Source of the DNA: an uncultured Candidatus Saccharibacteria bacterium
GTDB lineage: Bacteria; Patescibacteriota; Saccharimonadia; Saccharimonadales; JACDBH01
Direction: 5' to 3'
DNA: 64,000 bases
Assembly (NCBI GenBank): GCA_965231105.1
Contig: OZ246417.1
Location: forward strand, 100,094-164,093
Positions 3,094 to 57,199 of the stretch are shown here, piece by piece; the stretch's first letter is position 1; each line of letters begins with the position of its first letter. Under the pieces are notes generated by a model. That model was not told the DNA's origin. It searched no databases and saw only the letters and a list, made by a program, of their open reading frames with translations. The position numbers and the translations under genes were made by a program.

Positions 3094-3492
3094 ATGGATA
3101 ACAACACCCCAGCCCCACAACACCTTAAAAAAATCTTATTCGTGGAGGACGATGACGGCCTCGCACAGGTGTATCTCACGCGACTTGATGCCGAAGGCTT
3201 TCAGGTTAAGCGAGTACCAAATGGTGAAGACGCCCTTGCCGCAGCCCTCGAATTTAAGCCGGACCTTATTTTATTAGATGCCATGATGCCCCAGGTTAAT
3301 GGCTTTGATGTATTAGATATCCTTCGTAATACTCCAGAAACAACCAACGTTAAGGTTATTATGCTTACCGCCCTAAGCCAGGAAACAGATCGTCAGAAGG
3401 CTGAAAGTTTGGGTGTGGATGACTATCTCGTGAAATCGCAAGTCGTGATCGCTGATGTGATCGAAAAGATCAAGCAACACCTCGGTGCCTAA
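3094..3492 (+). CDS. standalone response-regulator receiver domain protein
   Basis: VEDDD acidic pocket, PDLILLDAMMP phospho-acceptor Asp, LTA and K motifs. There is no output domain. It is a paralog of the receiver part of 54679..55653. Confidence 0.85.
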   Translation: MDNNTPAPQHLKKILFVEDDDGLAQVYLTRLDAEGFQVKRVPNGEDALAAALEFKPDLILLDAMMPQVNGFDVLDILRNTPETTNVKVIMLTALSQETDRQKAESLGVDDYLVKSQVVIADVIEKIKQHLGA

Positions 3493-3519
3493 ATAAGTTT
3501 AAATATCCTTAAAACAAAA

Positions 3520-5190
3520 ATGTCAGAAGATACACCTCAGTTTGCACCACCCAATCCAGAAGATTTAGTAGTGCCTGGCTTTGAAATGCCGGCAGCACAA
3601 GTAGCGAGCAATTTGCTTGCAGACTCCGCGCCCGTAACCGCACCGAACGAGGCTCTATCTCATAATGTGCCTAATCCTGAAGCGGTATATACCAATCGTG
3701 GTATGGAAATTGTTCTTGATACGAATGCCGAATTTGATAAGCCCGAGGCATTTGGCATAGATTCAAAATCATTTAGTGGACCCGTATCGATTATTGGCAG
3801 ACTCAATCTTGGGAGCGACGATGATTCTCTCAGTTTTCCTATAGCTAAAACAGTCACCCCCCTTGGCTTTGAGGAGTACTGGCTTGTTCCAAAAAAAGAA
3901 GGCTACAATGACGAGGGTCGAAATGCCTGGATACCCATTGGCGATGCAAGTCGTCGGGGGCACCCTCACGGGATCGGGAGAGACAACGAGAGGAGCACTA
4001 TTGACGGCACCCGTCTCATAGGTCGAGAATTTCCCGATACCGTATCACGAGTGCATTTGGCCGTAGAATCTGTTGATTCAGGAGTAAAGTTCACCGATCT
4101 TTCTACCAACGGCAGTCTTATAGAAGGTACGGTAAAAAGTAAGAAGGTAGTTCATACTGATGAGATAACACAACAGGTCGAAGAAACCGCACGACTGGTG
4201 AACTCCTTTAAACAAAAAGCCAAAGATTTTGTAGGAAGTGCAGGCTATTCAGGAACCGATTATGTCGCACCAAGCGAGTATGGTTTTTCAGATCATACCT
4301 TGATCGATCACATAAAAGATGTGAACGAAATGGCTCAGAATAACTTTCCGCCAGAGTCACTTGAAATTATGCTTAAGTACACTTTTAGGGGCAAAGAGTT
4401 AGCCGATCTCACCCAGATAGCTCGAAGTGCAAAAGATATAATGCAGGTACAGAAAGCTCTGGCCTGGATGTACAAAGAACATCCACGAACTGCTGAAACT
4501 GTTATAGCAAGAGATATTGTGGGCGTGCACGGCACATCCTCGGCTGCCTTGGTGGGAATATTGGAGCATGGTAGCTTATTGGCAGCAGCAGAAGCAAAAC
4601 AGAGAGGCGTAGTCCATGCAACGGGTGAGCATATTTATCAGGAGCCTACTGGTCAGGATACCATAAGTTTTACAACCCTGGCCGATACCGGAAACGCACT
4701 TCATTTTGCAGGACCTATCGCCGGTAAGCATCGTAGCCGAGCTGAGGTGATAGATAGAATAGATAGGACTATTTCTGAACTCGGGAAAGAGCTGAAGGAT
4801 AAACCACATCTTGGACGGAGCTATAGAGGCGTTTTAGAAGTTATGATTAAAGAGCAGGGTCATATAAAAGCTGAAATAGAGCAGAACCCTGATGGCCTAA
4901 TGGCTCAGTTGATGAAAGATGATTTTCCGGTATTGTTTGGTATAAGCAGGGAGTCTCTTTTTGCGGGGAGTGAAAAGAAAAAGCCTAACTGGTCGCCAAT
5001 TAACGGGACATCTGGTGATTATGAAGAAGTTAGAGCTGCACGAAGTGACATACCCCTAGAAGAGATGATTATGGCTGTTCCGGCTACACGAATAGATAAA
5101 GTACGAAAATTGCTAGAGGATTATGGCAAAAAAGGTGTTACAGTGCTGCCGATAGAGGATTTTGTGCCCCAAAATTCAAAGAGAATATAG
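3520..5190 (+). CDS. FHA-domain protein with uncharacterised C-terminal domain (possible ART/PARP-like fold)
   Basis: Clear FHA signature GRDNERS...VSRVHLAV...TDLSTNGSLIEG (nt ~3970-4134). The C-terminal VHGTSSAALVGILEHGSL...GEHIYQE resembles the H..Y part of H-Y-E ADP-ribosyltransferases. Confidence 0.7.
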   Translation: MSEDTPQFAPPNPEDLVVPGFEMPAAQVASNLLADSAPVTAPNEALSHNVPNPEAVYTNRGMEIVLDTNAEFDKPEAFGIDSKSFSGPVSIIGRLNLGSDDDSLSFPIAKTVTPLGFEEYWLVPKKEGYNDEGRNAWIPIGDASRRGHPHGIGRDNERSTIDGTRLIGREFPDTVSRVHLAVESVDSGVKFTDLSTNGSLIEGTVKSKKVVHTDEITQQVEETARLVNSFKQKAKDFVGSAGYSGTDYVAPSEYGFSDHTLIDHIKDVNEMAQNNFPPESLEIMLKYTFRGKELADLTQIARSAKDIMQVQKALAWMYKEHPRTAETVIARDIVGVHGTSSAALVGILEHGSLLAAAEAKQRGVVHATGEHIYQEPTGQDTISFTTLADTGNALHFAGPIAGKHRSRAEVIDRIDRTISELGKELKDKPHLGRSYRGVLEVMIKEQGHIKAEIEQNPDGLMAQLMKDDFPVLFGISRESLFAGSEKKKPNWSPINGTSGDYEEVRAARSDIPLEEMIMAVPATRIDKVRKLLEDYGKKGVTVLPIEDFVPQNSKRI

Positions 5191-5199
5191 GTAGCTCAA

Positions 5200-10398: not shown

Positions 10399-11121
10399 AT
10401 GGGGAGATCAAGAGCGCCTAAAAAAACTGAAGCCGATTTATTGTTCCGTAATTTAGCGGAGCAGGTTAAGTTACCTTTTATTCAAATTGCCCATGCTGCC
10501 GAACTATCTCGCATGCATCCATCGGAAGAGAAGCAGTATCAGCTTTCTCAAACTATTTCTTTGACATCTGCTGCTGCACTTAAAATGATTGACGGCTATT
10601 TGCTGAGCGTCGCACTACAGGCAGAAGGACGGCTTAATCTTGAGCCTGTTTCTATTTCATCGGTTCTCTATGATACCGCTCAAACACTTGATGCGTATGC
10701 GCGTGCCCATGATTGTGAGATCCAACTGGAAGTAGGCGGCAAATATCAGCCGGTTATGGCTCAGCGCGAAGCGGTAGAATCCGCCTTAACCAATCTCGGC
10801 TACAGCTTTATTGAGGCAGCTTCAACGGCCGGTAAGCGATCGCGTATTACCCTGGCTGTGCGCCGTACGTCTCGTGGAATCAGTACGGGAGTTTTTTCGG
10901 AAAATAATACCTTAAGTACGGGCCTGTTTAAGCAAGCCAAGGCCTTAAAGGGAATGGTTAAGCAGCCATTTAGTGAGTTTAGCCCTGGTAGTGGAGCGGG
11001 TGTGTTTGTAGCGGATGCTTTATTTATGCGATTAGAAAGCGCAATGCATGTTGCCCGACTTCATTCGCAGCGTGGCCTTGCTGCCACCCTTACCCCCAGT
11101 TTGCAGCTAAGTTTAGTATGA
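10399..11121 (+). CDS. degenerate histidine-kinase-like protein (no TM, no recognisable G1 box)
   Basis: H-box-like IQIAHAAELSRM, N-box-like ESALTNLGYSFIEA and G2-like GSGAGVFVADAL, but no DxGxG. Its stop overlaps the start of the next gene (ATGA). Confidence 0.45.
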   Translation: MGRSRAPKKTEADLLFRNLAEQVKLPFIQIAHAAELSRMHPSEEKQYQLSQTISLTSAAALKMIDGYLLSVALQAEGRLNLEPVSISSVLYDTAQTLDAYARAHDCEIQLEVGGKYQPVMAQREAVESALTNLGYSFIEAASTAGKRSRITLAVRRTSRGISTGVFSENNTLSTGLFKQAKALKGMVKQPFSEFSPGSGAGVFVADALFMRLESAMHVARLHSQRGLAATLTPSLQLSLV

Positions 11122-11513
11122 GTAAAATCCTTTTATTAGAGCCAAATCGTTTATTGGCCCAACAGTACATGGCCTTGCTTCAAGGTATGGGTCATGACGT
11201 AGAGTGGAGCGAGGATGCCCAAACCGGCATTACTTCTGCCGACGAAACAGTGCCCGACCTTATTATCATCGAACTGCTCTTAGCAGGGCACAGTGGCATT
11301 GAGTTTTTATACGAATTTCGTTCCTATCCAGAGTGGCGGGATGTACCCGCTATTGTCTTAACTTCTGTAGCTCCCCGCGACATTAAGGCTTCAGAGCAAA
11401 TCTTGCGTGAGCTTGGCGTTGCAATGCTGCTGTATAAGCCAGACACCTCACTTACGATGCTAAGGCATCATGTAAAGCGAGCGCTTCAGGTAGCACCTCA
11501 GGAAACTCGATGA
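11118..11513 (+). CDS. atypical receiver (pseudo-receiver) domain protein
   Basis: Receiver-like layout, but the phospho-acceptor position reads PDLIIIELLL (Glu instead of Asp). The N-terminal acidic pair is replaced by LLLEPN. Confidence 0.6.
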   Translation: MSKILLLEPNRLLAQQYMALLQGMGHDVEWSEDAQTGITSADETVPDLIIIELLLAGHSGIEFLYEFRSYPEWRDVPAIVLTSVAPRDIKASEQILRELGVAMLLYKPDTSLTMLRHHVKRALQVAPQETR

Positions 11514-17161: not shown

Positions 17162-20100
17162 ATGGGCCATTATATAAGGTTGCTTAAAGACGCTCTAAAT
17201 AGACTCACAAACCACAATCGCAATCTTATCGCTCTCACTTTTGTTTTTATTCTTTTCTCGAGTATTTTTCTGCCCGCCTACGGCACCTTTGCGCTTGAAC
17301 TGAGTACTCCCCCAGAGACAAGTGCAGGAGTGAAGCCTGCCCAGGAAGAATCTTCAGAAAAGACTAAGAAAGAATTCAAATACCCGCCTGCGATGGAAAC
17401 GGTTACGTCTTCTACTGAAGCCGCCCGGGACGCGAGGCCATCTTCAGGAAATCTTTTGGGAGGGTTCAAGAAAGAGAAGCTTGTAGCTTCTGAGACTCTA
17501 CAGGGTGAGGTGCCTACGACAAAAATTAAAACTGGCGAACTTAAAGAAAAGCGTACTGCCAAATCCACGGTTGAGGTAAACGAGGACGGATCAATTACCG
17601 AAAAGCACTACATGGTTCCGCAGCATTTTCAAAAGGATGGTGTATGGGAAAAGATAGACACTACTCTCGTAGAAGATAAAAATGCTGGCGATTCAGGCAA
17701 CGTATTCGGAAGGGCTCTCGGAACAGTAAAATCCTGGGTCTCTAAAGATAAGACTTTTACAGTTAAAGACAACGGTTGGCAGGCACGTTTTGCCCCAAGC
17801 AACGACAAGGCGGGTCTTTTGAGGGTAAAAAAGAATGATCAGCAGGTTAGCTTCGTGCCTGTAAATGCAAACAGCGTGGATCCTATTATTACTACGAATG
17901 ATCAGGGCCAGCAAACAGTCCACTACTATGATCTCTGGCCAGGAGTCGACGTGGAATACGTCGTTGAAACGGCGACAGTCAAAGAGAATATTATCCTCAA
18001 AAACAAGAACGCATCTCATGGCGTCTCTTTTAAAATGATTGGCGGGACATTAGAGAAAAGGCAAGATGAACCTAATGCAGTTCCATACTATGTCATAAAA
18101 GGAGCGCTTAATGATGAGTTTGCGGTTTCTCCTGCCAACCTTATCCTTAATAACTATGGCTTTGTAAGCGACCAGAGCGTATTTTCGCAAACATATGAAA
18201 ACAGCACCATTACTGCTGAGGTAGACAAGGAATACCTGCAGAATTTACCTGATAATGCCTTTCCGGCGGTGATAGATCCGGGCTTTTTTGACAGTTCTTT
18301 CGGTACTCGTGCTGGCGGTACATACATGTCTTTTAAGACAGATGGCTACATTTGTCCTTCCACGCAATGTAATTTGTATGCCGGATCTTTGTATGACTCG
18401 GGAGGAGCGTTGCAGTACTGGCGCGGCGCATTCTTTGCTCCATACGAACAGTTCCGCGATCCAAACACAAGTCTTATCAGCGCCACGCTTCATCTTGTGC
18501 AACGTTCAAACGAAAGCTTTTGGACCGGTGATTGGGGTACTCATAATTTCCAAGTAGGTCATGCACCCTGTTTAAATAGCTTTAACTGTGTGAGCACCAA
18601 TTCTCATAACGGTAATGTGACGGGAACAGGAAGTATTGATGTTACTACTTTGTATCAAAACCGGATCAGCGCAGGAGATTTTGGTGCGTGGATGATGGTA
18701 ATGGGTGAGGACGGTACGGATCATTCCTTTAAGAATTTCGATCCTGGTACACAGCCAAGCACAGGAACCTATGTGGCTTTTACTCATGGCGGTCCGCCAA
18801 CCGCTCCTAATTTTTCAACGCCAGTGGCGAATCAGGTCTTTACCGACCCCCAACCTTCTTTCCTCGTTAACCTCGTCACCAATCCTAATGGTTCTGCGCT
18901 ATTAAAGTATGAGTTTTCTATTAGCAGCAGCCCAGGAGGTGCGGGCGCACTTATTAATTCCGGTCTTGTAAATGGCATGCAGTGGACAGTACCCGATGGT
19001 ATCTTGCAAGATGGTTCAACCTATTACATACAGGCTAAAAGCCACGATCCTATCACTAATTCTTCAAGTGCGTGGGGTGCGTCGGTACCGTTCCGTATTG
19101 ATATGCGTACAGGTAAAGATGCGACGCAGACGTACGATACGCTTGGCCCTGTTGATGTAGTCCTTGCAACCGGTAATGTAACGACACATGCTACCAGCCA
19201 TACATCATCCGCACTGGGTGGTAGTCTTGGTGTTAGCCTCGACTATAATTCACCCCTAAGATCTCGTAACGGTCTTGTGGGACAATATTGGAACAATACA
19301 ACAAGGAGCGGTACCCCTGTTCTCACAAGAGTAGACCAAAGCGTGAATTTTCGGTGGGATTTAAGCTCGCCAGCAGCCGGGACGGTTAATGATGATAATT
19401 TCTCCGCCAGCTGGAATGGCTATTTTGTTGCTCCAACTACTGGAGACTATTATTTCGGTGGTAGCCATGATGATGATATGACAGTGCTGGTAGATGGTCA
19501 GCAGGTATATAGTAGTTCTATATGTTCGCCCGGACCGTGTTATTACACTGTTCCGATTCATCTGGATGAGGGACAAATCGTACCATTTGTTACCACATAC
19601 ATAGAAGGGCAGGGTTACGCCCATGCCAAAGTGTGGGTAAAGGGTCCGGTAGATGAACAACCATTGCCGCAAGCATGGGTGCAGACCGGTGTAAGACCAG
19701 TGTATAGCAACCGCGGGCTAACCGGCAGCTACTTCGGTAAAAACGACGGAACTAACACGTTCTCAACTGCGAACGCGCAGATTATGAAACGCACCGATCC
19801 ATACCTGAATTTTGATTGGGGCACCGGATCTCCCGTGCCTGATGGACCGGACGGTTTCTTGGTTCGCTGGTCTGGGTATGTAACGGTACCCGTGACTGGC
19901 ACCTATAACTTTGGAGTCAAAAGTGATGATGGCGCAAAGATCATGCTCGGTCCGAACGATACGCCCGTCTATAACGAATGGGTAGATAGGGGAGCAACTG
20001 AATCCTATGGCTCGGGTTTTTCACTTACCGCAGATGTACCCACACGTATAACCATCGAATATTACGATGGTGGTGGAGGTGCAACCTTCCAGTTAAAAGT

Positions 20101-55720: not shown

Positions 55721-57052
55721 CTATTTCGCCTCTGGTAATACCGAGACCTTGCTGGCTTCTTCGCGCATAAGTTGCTGGGCGCGCTCGGTTGTTAATCGTG
55801 GCAGATTTATATAGAACGTACTTCCCTTACCTACGACACTTTCTACCCAAATGCGTCCGTTGTATAATTCGATAATTTTACGACAAATAAATAGGCCAAG
55901 ACCAGTGCCACCGACGGTTCGGGTGCTGGAGTTATCGACACGGTAGAACTTTTCAAATAAATGCGGAACATCCTCGGCGGGTATACCATGACCGGTATCG
56001 GTAATACGGAGCTGCACCACCGTGTTATCACCAGTAAGGCCCAGGGTAATTTTACCTGTCTCAGTATATTTAACGGCATTATCAAAGAGATTGGTGATAA
56101 CCTCACGCAAACGATCAGGGTCAACGTGGACGTAATAGAGCGGTTTCACCACGTTCCCGCCACTCGCATCAATGACTTGCCCTGGTGCGCCTAAGACAAA
56201 CTCTACGCTCAGATTCTTTTTCTGGGCAGCAAATTTAAGCCCATCGGTTAAGGTCTCCAGGAACTGGCTCACCTCGAGTGTGGCGGGGTGGTTGGTAAGA
56301 CGTCCGTCTTCGGCTTTGGCACTGGTAAGCAAGTCTTGGAAAAGCTCCCCAAGGTGCTGCGTACTTTCATGGGCTTTTTCGAGAAATCCCCGCGCTTTGG
56401 AGTCAAGCGTACTCACCTTGTCATTAAGCGCCAACGCTAGGTAGCCTTCAATTGCCGCTACAGGTGTACGCATTTCGTGGCTGGCTGTGCTCACGAACTC
56501 AGTTCGTTGTTGCTCTTCTTTGCGCTGTTCGCTAATGTCTCGAAACACGCCAACCGCTCCCTGAATATTGCCTGCACTATCTACCAGGGGAGAAACAGTC
56601 ATATCAAGACATAACACCGTCTTAGAACGTGTTCTTAAACAGGCTCGACGGTCACGAATGGTAGCTTTTTCTTGGAATGCTCTAAAAAATGGATTTTTTT
56701 CCTCAAGATATGGTTCGCCCTTATCATCAATCAGCTGTAATACAGCCGCATAATTAAGACCCTGAGCTTCTTTGGGTTCCCACCCGGTAATAACACCTGC
56801 AGCAGGATTGAAAAGCTGAATAGTTTTTTCTGAGTCAATCAGAATAACCCCGTCTTCAATGGCGCGTAGGATAATCTCTGATTTTTGTTTTTCATCCCGT
56901 AAGTTTGAGGCTAAAACATGTGCAGGTCCTTTTGGCTTACTCGGTGTTTTCTTTTTTCGGGCAAATAAAAAAACAACCGCTGCTACAACAATAACGGCAA
57001 AGAGGCCCGCGATGATCAACATGTATTTCACGCTTATGGTTATTCCTGGCAA
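55721..57052 (-). CDS. sensor histidine kinase (TM-PAS-HisKA-HATPase)
   Basis: H box SHEMRTPVAAIEGY, N box NLFDNAVKYT, G1 DTGHGI and G2 GGTGLGL, with a PAS-like segment after a single TM helix. Confidence 0.9.
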   Translation of the reverse strand: MPGITISVKYMLIIAGLFAVIVVAAVVFLFARKKKTPSKPKGPAHVLASNLRDEKQKSEIILRAIEDGVILIDSEKTIQLFNPAAGVITGWEPKEAQGLNYAAVLQLIDDKGEPYLEEKNPFFRAFQEKATIRDRRACLRTRSKTVLCLDMTVSPLVDSAGNIQGAVGVFRDISEQRKEEQQRTEFVSTASHEMRTPVAAIEGYLALALNDKVSTLDSKARGFLEKAHESTQHLGELFQDLLTSAKAEDGRLTNHPATLEVSQFLETLTDGLKFAAQKKNLSVEFVLGAPGQVIDASGGNVVKPLYYVHVDPDRLREVITNLFDNAVKYTETGKITLGLTGDNTVVQLRITDTGHGIPAEDVPHLFEKFYRVDNSSTRTVGGTGLGLFICRKIIELYNGRIWVESVVGKGSTFYINLPRLTTERAQQLMREEASKVSVLPEAK

Positions 57053-57122: not shown

Positions 57123-57199
57123 TGGTGACCCCTGCGGGGTTCGAACCCGCGATCTTCAGGATGAGAACCTGATGTCCTGGACCACTAGACGAAGGGGCC
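57123..57199 (-). tRNA. tRNA-Glu (anticodon CTC), CCA encoded
   Basis: A manual cloverleaf fold gives 77 nt in total. Arms: acceptor GGCCCCT/AGGGGTC, D arm GTCT/GGAC and anticodon stem TCAGG/CCTGA with loop TTCTCAT. The T arm is GCGGG-TTCGAAC-CCCGC, followed by discriminator A and CCA. Confidence 0.9.

Follow-up and report, generated by a model that had tools for sequence, protein, structure and literature searches.

A putative DarT-like ADP-ribosyltransferase domain joined to a divergent FHA domain in an uncultured Saccharibacteria bacterium

In a 64,000-nucleotide stretch of DNA from an uncultured Candidatus Saccharibacteria bacterium (assembly GCA_965231105.1, contig OZ246417.1, positions 100,094 to 164,093 of the forward strand; hereafter the window), we analysed an intact open reading frame (ORF; 3520–5190, forward strand, with a stop codon at its end). 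It encodes a protein of 556 residues, here called the FHA-ART-like protein (P0001), ART standing for ADP-ribosyltransferase. With moderate confidence, we read it as a two-module protein, in which an FHA domain is joined to a new family of the ART superfamily whose nearest relative is DarT. The gene follows a stand-alone response-regulator receiver gene (3094–3492, forward strand, 132 residues), from which it is separated by a spacer of 27 nucleotides (nt) read directly from the sequence (3493–3519), and it converges with rpmA, the gene of ribosomal protein L27 (5200–5472, reverse strand; Pfam Ribosomal_L27). A first-pass annotation, made from the letters of the DNA, had proposed a three-part module of receiver, textbook FHA domain and PARP-like or Tpt1-like enzyme with the residues H337, Y373 and E478; both ORFs, the spacer, the quoted peptides and the residue numbering proved correct by direct reading. 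We would class the FHA-ART-like protein as a new family, with a new architecture, inside a known superfamily. The annotation had not recognised the combination as described, and we likewise found no description of an FHA-ART fusion, or of ARTs in Saccharibacteria, in the searchable literature, the coverage of which was incomplete.

The C-terminal domain and its relation to DarT

When 1.84 billion cluster representatives were searched exhaustively with HMMER (E<=1e-3), 137 proteins were recovered. The exhaustive search was needed: a word-indexed search returned merely P0001 itself, and two proteins when an alignment served as the query. Profile and single-protein scans of genome contigs found no relatives, and the FHA-ART-like protein itself is also present on two Logan contigs and one NCBI contig. 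The C-terminal ~300 residues are matched by 125 of the 137 representatives, many of which are stand-alone proteins of 320–360 residues and some of which have the N-terminal module as well. In the 12 remaining representatives the match is confined to the N-terminal region (residues ~45–212), and this group (e.g. P0073) has an unrelated coiled-coil C-terminus. The fusion of both modules recurs in P0006, P0008, P0010, P0023 and P0046, as well as at locus L083. No model covering the C-terminal domain was found in Pfam, NCBIfam or PADLOC, and a phmmer search of the PDB with the whole 556-residue protein gave no match.

The AlphaFold2 (AF2) model of the C-terminal domain, built from an alignment of 62 sequences with 20–40% overall identity (A1), has a predicted local distance difference test score (pLDDT) of 94.1 and a predicted template-modelling score (pTM) of 0.91. 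The domain starts with a helical sub-domain (residues 258–330; 4291–4509, all coordinates here and below being on the forward strand unless stated), with predicted helices at C-domain residues 19–34, 39–47, 65–81 and 83–91 (pLDDT >94) and conserved residues E282, G287, G291, R311, P322 and A325. It is followed by the first half of the ART-like core (residues 331–399; 4510–4716), comprised of the β1 strand with the motif G335-x-H337-G-T-x-S341, a helix, a short β2 strand, a long conserved loop (G369-E370-H371-x-Y373-Q374...G378-Q379), the β3 strand with S383-F384, and a helix ending at F396. A helical hairpin (residues 400–466; 4717–4917) is inserted within the core, with helices at C-domain residues 168–188, 194–216 and 221–227 (pLDDT >95); coiled-coil and S15 matches to this stretch were set aside as spurious. 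The second half of the core (residues 467–556; 4918–5187) contains the β4 strand with F469-P470, a variable loop (residues 482–502) that is rich in insertions and deletions and resembles the ADP-ribosylating turn-turn (ARTT) loop, the β5 strand starting at E503, then A-V520-P521, a helix and a final strand with E546. ART cores carry a His, an aromatic residue, the ARTT loop and the catalytic Glu in this order, and the predicted strand order β1(H)-α-β2-loop-β3(SF)-...-β4(FP)-loop-β5(E) matches such a core.

Among the 62 aligned sequences, the first half of the core retains G335, H337, S341 and L344 (59 each), G369 (60), E370 (50), S383 (58) and F384 (60), and column 396 is aromatic in 61 (53 Tyr, 5 Trp and 3 Phe, with one His), being Phe in the query. 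The second half retains F469 (62), P470 (61), E503 (61 Glu and one Asp), V520 (59) and P521 (60). The query keeps every conserved residue except F504, which is replaced by Val, and its C-terminal domain therefore looks active as judged by these residues. Additionally, P0067, P0077, P0105 and P0131 each give two matches to the His-motif region, a pattern suggesting that part of the first core half has been duplicated in tandem, and one family member weakly matches Pfam CRISPR_Cas2 (3.6e-4).

Structural, sequence and profile comparisons all point to DarT. Foldseek against 350,542 PDB chains placed DarT structures at ranks 1–4 (7omy, 7omw, 7omv and 7yk3_C), and none of the top 50 matches is a PARP structure. 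When a profile of residues 326–400 was run against all PDB sequences with hmmsearch, two matches appeared at E<=10, the better one being E. coli C7 DarT1 (E=0.038), in which the family pattern fHgtrSgaLagvLehggLlsakel is aligned with FHFTHSDNLTSILDN-GLMSRSEL. For profile-profile comparison, a DarT alignment (A5) was assembled from 37 of 50 PF14487 proteins, the genuine DarT genes being taken from plasmids. With hhalign, A1 and A5 align at 85.0% probability (P=6.4e-6) over 48 columns, from H337 to the SISF motif, and trimmed cores reach 87–88% (P=3.1–3.7e-6); the controls gave P=0.18 for reversed DarT and P=0.03 for the best of 60 column shuffles. At a relaxed threshold the alignment extends into the second half, setting 'sD.gEFr..Ip' on DarT 'PTD.dAEVQV.E.I.P' and E503 on the invariant DarT Glu. 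This profile-profile homology is at a suggestive level, short of conclusive.

The first-pass annotation had compared the domain with human PARP1. The PARP1 likeness goes beyond chance for the His motif alone: against the verified human PARP1 catalytic domain, hhalign picked out precisely the His-motif alignment of the annotation (GfHGT.S.AL.giL), though at P=0.005 and 7% probability. The Tyr part of the comparison fails because Y373 is variable. A single DarT sequence gives a stronger result (P=3e-5, 73%), so that PARP1 is not the nearest relative. At threshold, the curated ART models match 0 of the 62 members, and PADLOC gives no DarT match; among weak Pfam matches, PARP occurs in three members (best 0.016) and DarT in one (0.14), PARP being the only Pfam family besides FHA that recurs. 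Taken together, the structural, sequence and profile tests make an ART fold with DarT as its nearest relative the best reading, and we hold with good confidence that the domain belongs to the PARP-like (H-Y-E) clade, closest to DarT.

Several results weigh against reading the protein as an FHA-ART fusion. None of the individual ART tests reaches conventional significance. The Foldseek scores for DarT are weak (E=0.10–0.46, probability 0.30–0.66, template-modelling (TM) scores 0.24–0.44, target-normalised 0.35–0.44), the confident hhalign alignment covers 48 columns of the first core half at a probability below 95%, and the second half by itself is not significant (P=0.017). In the N-terminal module, the top 50 Foldseek matches of the model in the PDB include no FHA domain, and no match falls below E=0.02. 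Beside the FHA-ART-like gene there is no gene for an ADP-ribosyl hydrolase (macrodomain, NADAR or ARH), and the 64-kb window yielded no Ser/Thr kinase motif.

One could also argue that the C-terminal domain is not an ART at all, being another enzyme or a non-catalytic scaffold whose β-α-β likeness ('HGT...L..IL..G.L.S') arose by convergence or chance. Foldseek E-values above 0.1 with TM scores below 0.45, an hhalign probability below 90% over 48 confidently aligned columns and the lack of any curated ART model match at threshold would fit such a domain, as would helical elements without a DarT counterpart that make up more than 40% of its length. Against it stand the agreement of three partly independent methods on DarT (the top four Foldseek matches, the best PDB sequence, and hhalign with clean controls), an invariant His and Glu on the very strands where ARTs carry them, and PARP as the only other recurrent weak Pfam match. 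We consider a non-ART domain doubtful.

Assuming the DarT-like reading, the comparison with known enzymes reveals both shared and distinct features. DarT (PF14487/DUF4433; Thermus 7OMW, M. tuberculosis 7YK3 and E. coli C7 DarT1 8BAQ) is the best structural and sequence match. The two have in common a β1 'H-x-T' motif followed by a helix 'L..I...G.L.S', a Ser-rich β3 strand (SISF in the C-terminal domain, AVSVS in DarT), and a late strand in which an invariant Glu follows an Asp and precedes hydrophobic residues ('sD.gEFr' and 'TD..AEVQV', respectively). However, the C-terminal domain is larger (~300 versus ~200 residues) owing to the N-terminal helical sub-domain and the 65-residue helical hairpin, and its family lacks the DarT R-L-D motif (R51) and the W/C/F invariants, having the G-E-H/R loop and the invariant F-P instead. 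Unlike DarT, the FHA-ART-like gene has no DarG or NADAR partner, is fused to an FHA module and is chromosomal within conserved housekeeping synteny. Membership in the DarTG toxin-antitoxin systems was rejected because no antitoxin gene was found beside it.

PARP (PF00644; human PARP1 H862/Y896/Y907/E988) shares the β1/helix motif 'hHG[ST]....AGIL..G' and, putatively, the H...aromatic...Glu arrangement. PARP1–3 carry a helical sub-domain ahead of the core, which is comparable to residues 258–330 by analogy only, and the Tyr of the PARP-style 'GKGIYFA' has no conserved counterpart in the C-terminal family, given that Y373 is variable and situated in a loop. Tpt1/KptA (PF01885) uses an Arg-His-Arg-Arg catalytic tetrad without a catalytic Glu. 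The RNA 2'-phosphotransferase-like chemistry that had been suggested for the protein was rejected: none of the 62 members matches PF01885 at E<=10, a dedicated profile-profile comparison with Tpt1 not having been run, and the family has an invariant Glu.

The candidate residues fare differently. H337 (codon 4528–4530), proposed as the conserved NAD-binding His, is retained in 59 of the 62 sequences, lies on the predicted β1 strand (C-domain residues 94–101), and aligns with the invariant DarT His and PARP1 H862. In Thermus DarT, H13 touches the adenine-proximal ribose of NAD, and the invariant Glu is E160 (PMC9967889). By alignment, H337-G338-T339 would correspond to DarT H13-I14-T15 and PARP1 H862-G-S, with contacts to the NAD ribose and the nicotinamide amide. 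The loop with G369-E370-H/R371 occupies the position of the DarT R51 loop and may contribute to catalysis.

By contrast with H337, Y373 (codon 4636–4638) is aromatic in 44 of the 62 sequences (Tyr in 23, Phe in 17, Trp in 4, other residues in 18) and falls in a predicted coil (C-domain residues 123–143) rather than a strand. Its conservation and secondary structure led us to reject it as a catalytic residue, and it is probably not the canonical ART aromatic residue. F384 on β3 (codon 4669–4671) and its aromatic partner F396 (codon 4705–4707) are plausible, better candidates for the nicotinamide-stacking aromatic residues of the H-Y-E type; they are 12 residues apart, compared with a separation of 11 for PARP1 Y896 and Y907. 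E478 (codon 4951–4953), put forward as the catalytic Glu, was discarded as well, the column being poorly conserved (Asp in 20, Glu in 13, Ser in 9, Thr in 4, Gly in 4, others in the rest). The invariant acidic residue is E503 (codon 5026–5028), the candidate catalytic Glu, which begins a predicted strand (C-domain residues 264–266) after the indel-rich loop. In the extended hhalign alignment, where confidence is low, it coincides with the invariant DarT Glu, a residue mutated to Ala in deposited DarT structures.

The N-terminal FHA module

The N-terminal module (residues ~54–212) is, on its signature residues and profile matches, a real and apparently intact FHA domain of divergent type. It is preceded by a leader (residues 1–53; 3520–3678) that starts with 'MSEDTPQFAPPNPEDL', is Pro-rich and has a pLDDT of 51–71 over residues 1–50. 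The leader is followed by a beta-rich region (residues 54–135; 3679–3924) with predicted strands at residues 54–58, 63–67, 89–97, 104–112 and 118–122 (pLDDT >90), which is conserved together with the FHA signature and can be aligned with P0073-type proteins. The divergent FHA core (residues 136–212; 3925–4155) carries G153-R154, S176-R177-x-H179 and the N-G motif D193-L-S195-T196-N197-G198. A poorly conserved linker (residues 213–257; 4156–4290), partly a long predicted helix (213–240, pLDDT 63–78), leads to the C-terminal domain. The AF2 model of the N-terminal part is all-beta, with a pLDDT of 79.6 overall and above 90 at residues 50–120 and 160–200.

Since Foldseek had given no FHA result, the assignment was checked instead at the sequence level, against the PDB. 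The profile of residues 136–212, built from 18 homologues, matches 36 PDB sequences that are almost exclusively FHA domains; Rad53 FHA1 and 3gqs score 1.3e-6, and ArnA, Rv0020c, RNF8, GarA, Ki-67, EmbR and Rv1747 are also among the matches. In the 18-sequence alignment, no variation is seen at G153, R154, S176 and H179, and conservation reaches 90% or more at D193, S195 and N197. These residues belong to the loops with which FHA domains bind phospho-threonine, and the query has them all. Neither Pfam nor NCBIfam yields an FHA (PF00498) match for the query, even when sub-fragments are scanned at E<=10, and 6 of the 62 relatives match PF00498 unaided (best 3.3e-6). The FHA assignment of the first-pass annotation is therefore upheld, and its word 'textbook' is an overstatement because Pfam misses the domain and several features are atypical, namely the ~20 residues between GR and SxxH and the conserved beta-rich region ahead of the signature.

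Direct reading finds no obvious counterpart of the usual terminal FHA strands after the N-G loop. A conserved 'L.kGd.f.iDt' at residues ~58–67 is similar to 'L..GD.I.iG', the strands with which FHA domains usually finish. The FHA sandwich is possibly circularly permuted or extended, which could explain the Pfam and Foldseek misses. The FHA domains of GarA/OdhI, Rv0020c/FhaA and Rv1747 share with the protein the signature residues and an unstructured N-terminal leader. Compared with GarA/OdhI-type FHA proteins, the FHA-ART-like protein has a much longer insert between GR and SxxH, an extra beta-rich region ahead and a fused enzyme-like domain, and a Ser/Thr kinase was not identified near its gene.

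The module also occurs in other contexts. In five proteins, namely that encoded at L014:2116-3093 (P0073), P0075, P0101, P0107 and P0109, it is fused to a coiled-coil C-terminus with a conserved 'EAQxxGDGQxS' motif, which MAFFT sets opposite 'SAxEAKxRG...GQxSISF' of the ART-like proteins; the motif may be a degenerate ART-like remnant or a coincidence. At locus L012, an ORF fragment (L012:3-389) upstream of the stand-alone ART-like P0013 begins with 'SHLDMSTNGEKAE', which resembles the end of the FHA 'DLSTNG' loop, and the two modules may there be encoded by separate adjacent genes.

The receiver gene and the slot before rpmA

The upstream gene was correctly called a stand-alone receiver. It matches Pfam Response_reg (PF00072) at 2.9e-22 (79.4 bits versus a cut-off of 30.2), and direct reading identifies all phospho-chemistry residues: the acidic pocket E18/D19, the phospho-acceptor D62, T92 and K114, equivalent to CheY D12/D13, D57, T87 and K109. 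Like CheY/DivK-like single-domain regulators, it has the full receiver signature and no output domain, and no cognate kinase is adjacent. The gene order in the window is S41 peptidase, pyrG, receiver, FHA-ART-like gene, rpmA (convergent), methyltransferase, LPG-synthase-like membrane protein and xseA/xseB. Neither terminator-like nor promoter-like sites were called in the 27-nt spacer. Because no terminator was called there, co-transcription of the two genes is plausible, and the spacer evidence is weakly consistent with it.

Such an arrangement could represent a dedicated signalling module, in which the phosphorylated receiver controls a PARP-like ART or a Tpt1-like enzyme with the triad H337/Y373/E478. 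The short spacer without a called terminator and the conservation of H337 speak for it, and so does the recurrence of the gene order: pyrG, receiver, FHA-ART-like gene and rpmA are found again at L009 (P0006) and L011 (P0010), and L083 shares the receiver-to-rpmA part with an FHA+ART-like gene. The orthologous receivers at L009, L011 and L014 are 76–80% identical, while the downstream proteins at these loci are merely 20–43% identical, and that at L014 is an FHA module with a different C-terminus. ART-like genes adjoin rpmA at L009, L010, L011, L012, L015 and L083, and stand-alone ART-like genes adjoin rpmA without an upstream receiver at L015 and L016. A further stand-alone homologue (L007:6001-7023, P0099) has an FtsJ methyltransferase gene on one side and rpsJ on the other, where a ribosomal-protein operon begins, so that this member of the family, too, has ribosomal protein genes beside it; no receiver lies upstream of it either.

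We then surveyed the slot with the receiver as the probe, using the best 80 of 478 metagenome-contig relatives (L018–L097), which are not a random sample, and relying on naive ORF calling and narrow hidden Markov models, which limit the survey. Receiver and rpmA are both present in 55 of the 80 loci, at a distance of less than 150 nt in 16, 150–700 nt in 5, 0.7–2 kb in 30 and more than 2 kb in 4. No gene stands between them in 16 loci, and the remainder hold one to three genes (0.5–3 kb) that are mostly mutually unrelated. L083 is the only occupied slot with an FHA+ART-like gene; a few slots hold FHA-only or P0073-type proteins, and most occupants show no detectable similarity. The receiver is thus retained beside empty or unrelated slots, and we regard it as a conserved core gene next to a slot of hypervariable content (3493–5199 in the window), with the FHA-ART-like gene as one occupant among many and rpmA as the downstream synteny anchor.

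These data do not support an obligate receiver-ART partnership. The order of receiver and FHA-ART-like gene does recur, at L009, L011 and L083, and L083 alone among the 55 surveyed loci has an FHA-ART-like gene. The divergence of the downstream gene beside slowly evolving receivers, the different C-terminal domain that it carries in some genomes or its absence from others, the 16 empty slots, the stand-alone ART-like genes without a receiver, the poor conservation of Y373 and E478 and the lack of a Tpt1 match at any threshold together weaken the three-part module, which we judge very unlikely.

The slot proteins show one recurrent feature. Starts of the form M-[ST]-[EDN] followed by Pro-rich sequence (3520–3570 in the window) occur in 17 of 40 slot proteins versus 10 of 210 other ORFs from the same loci (Fisher P=3e-9), and 33 of the 137 family proteins start with 'MSE'. 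The start may be a leader or signal that these proteins have in common; alternatively, it may be a phospho-site or go back to a common ancestor.

In the wider window, two histidine kinases flank a tRNA gene (57126–57199), one of PAS-HisKA-HATPase type (55721–57052, reverse strand) and the other of HisKA-HATPase type (58209–59753, reverse strand). No other kinases were seen in the window; both lie more than 50 kb from the receiver gene and are candidate partners of orphan receivers. A second stand-alone receiver (11118–11513, forward strand; Response_reg 1.9e-8) shares its first 4 nt with the end of an ORF of 240 residues without a Pfam match (10399–11121, forward strand), which could encode an unrecognised phosphotransfer partner. 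A giant ORF of 2315 residues (17162–24109, forward strand) contains three PA14 domains together with GLEYA and an RHS repeat, and its product resembles Rhs-type surface proteins or polymorphic toxins. Directly downstream, the region 24001–28000 has a guanine-cytosine (GC) content of 0.37–0.38 versus ~0.46 elsewhere and contains small ORFs without Pfam matches; it may be a foreign or toxin/immunity cassette region.

The variability of the slot raises another explanation, a conflict or effector cassette, in which a DarT-like toxin behind the M-S/T-E leader in a fast-evolving locus would ADP-ribosylate DNA or RNA, or deplete NAD+, against hosts, competitors or phages. DarT, the nearest relative, modifies single-stranded DNA (PMC9967889). 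The unrelated proteins of the hypervariable slot, the enriched M[ST][EDN] starts, the fast evolution of the FHA-ART-like gene beside a slow receiver and the PA14/RHS giant protein encoded in the same window are all compatible with such a role. However, the gene has neither an adjacent antitoxin or hydrolase (DarG macrodomain, NADAR) nor an immunity-like small gene, and macro or NADAR domains were not called among the neighbours in the window or at L009, L011 and L014, which are pyrG, the receiver, rpmA and a methyltransferase gene. Neither a signal peptide nor a known secretion domain was seen, and the FHA fusion suggests intracellular phospho-signalling. The similarity to DarT is limited to the NAD-binding half, with the DNA-binding elements lying outside. 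Moreover, tblastn found no homologues in phage or plasmid collections and the GC content of the gene is typical for the region, on which grounds a mobile-element origin was rejected. A conflict cassette is an unlikely account of the gene.

Proposed mode of action and biological meaning

Beside the domain homologies, conserved residues, predicted fold and synteny described above, we infer NAD+ use, catalytic roles of the conserved residues and FHA-directed targeting. The protein would be cytoplasmic, with the FHA module (residues ~54–212) and the DarT-like module (residues ~258–556) acting together. The FHA domain would dock onto a phospho-threonine, either of a partner (a substrate or regulator) or of its own leader, as in GarA/OdhI. 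The NAD+ cleft would be formed by β1 (H337-G-T), the G369-E370-H371 loop, β3 and the next helix (S383-F384 and F396), and β4 (F469-P470). Specifically, E503, placed at the start of β5 after the variable ARTT-like loop, would activate NAD+, and the ADP-ribose would be moved to a target that the FHA domain recruits or gates, while the helical sub-domain and the hairpin may give the active site its shape or control access to it.

If the C-terminal domain proves to be an active ART, it would represent a new family of the superfamily, one that Pfam, NCBIfam and PADLOC lack and that is restricted to metagenomic bacteria with small genomes. Its combination of FHA domain, helical sub-domain and DarT-like core would then couple ADP-ribosylation to the recognition of phospho-threonine. 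A bolder reading, to which we assign a low probability, is that the protein is the first bacterial phospho-threonine-directed ADP-ribosyltransferase and, at the same time, one cassette of an unrecognised hypervariable locus of ultra-small, candidate phyla radiation (CPR)/Saccharibacteria-like bacteria, where FHA, ART-like, coiled-coil and unrelated domains are swapped behind an M-S/T-E leader beside a conserved orphan receiver. Were the phospho-threonine-directed part of this reading true, Ser/Thr-kinase signalling would license the ADP-ribosylation of a specific target; were the cassette part true, it would suggest a host-interaction or self-regulation system of a new, diversifying type. In these reduced genomes the slot between receiver and rpmA is a hypervariable locus, which could mark genes of the episymbiotic lifestyle.

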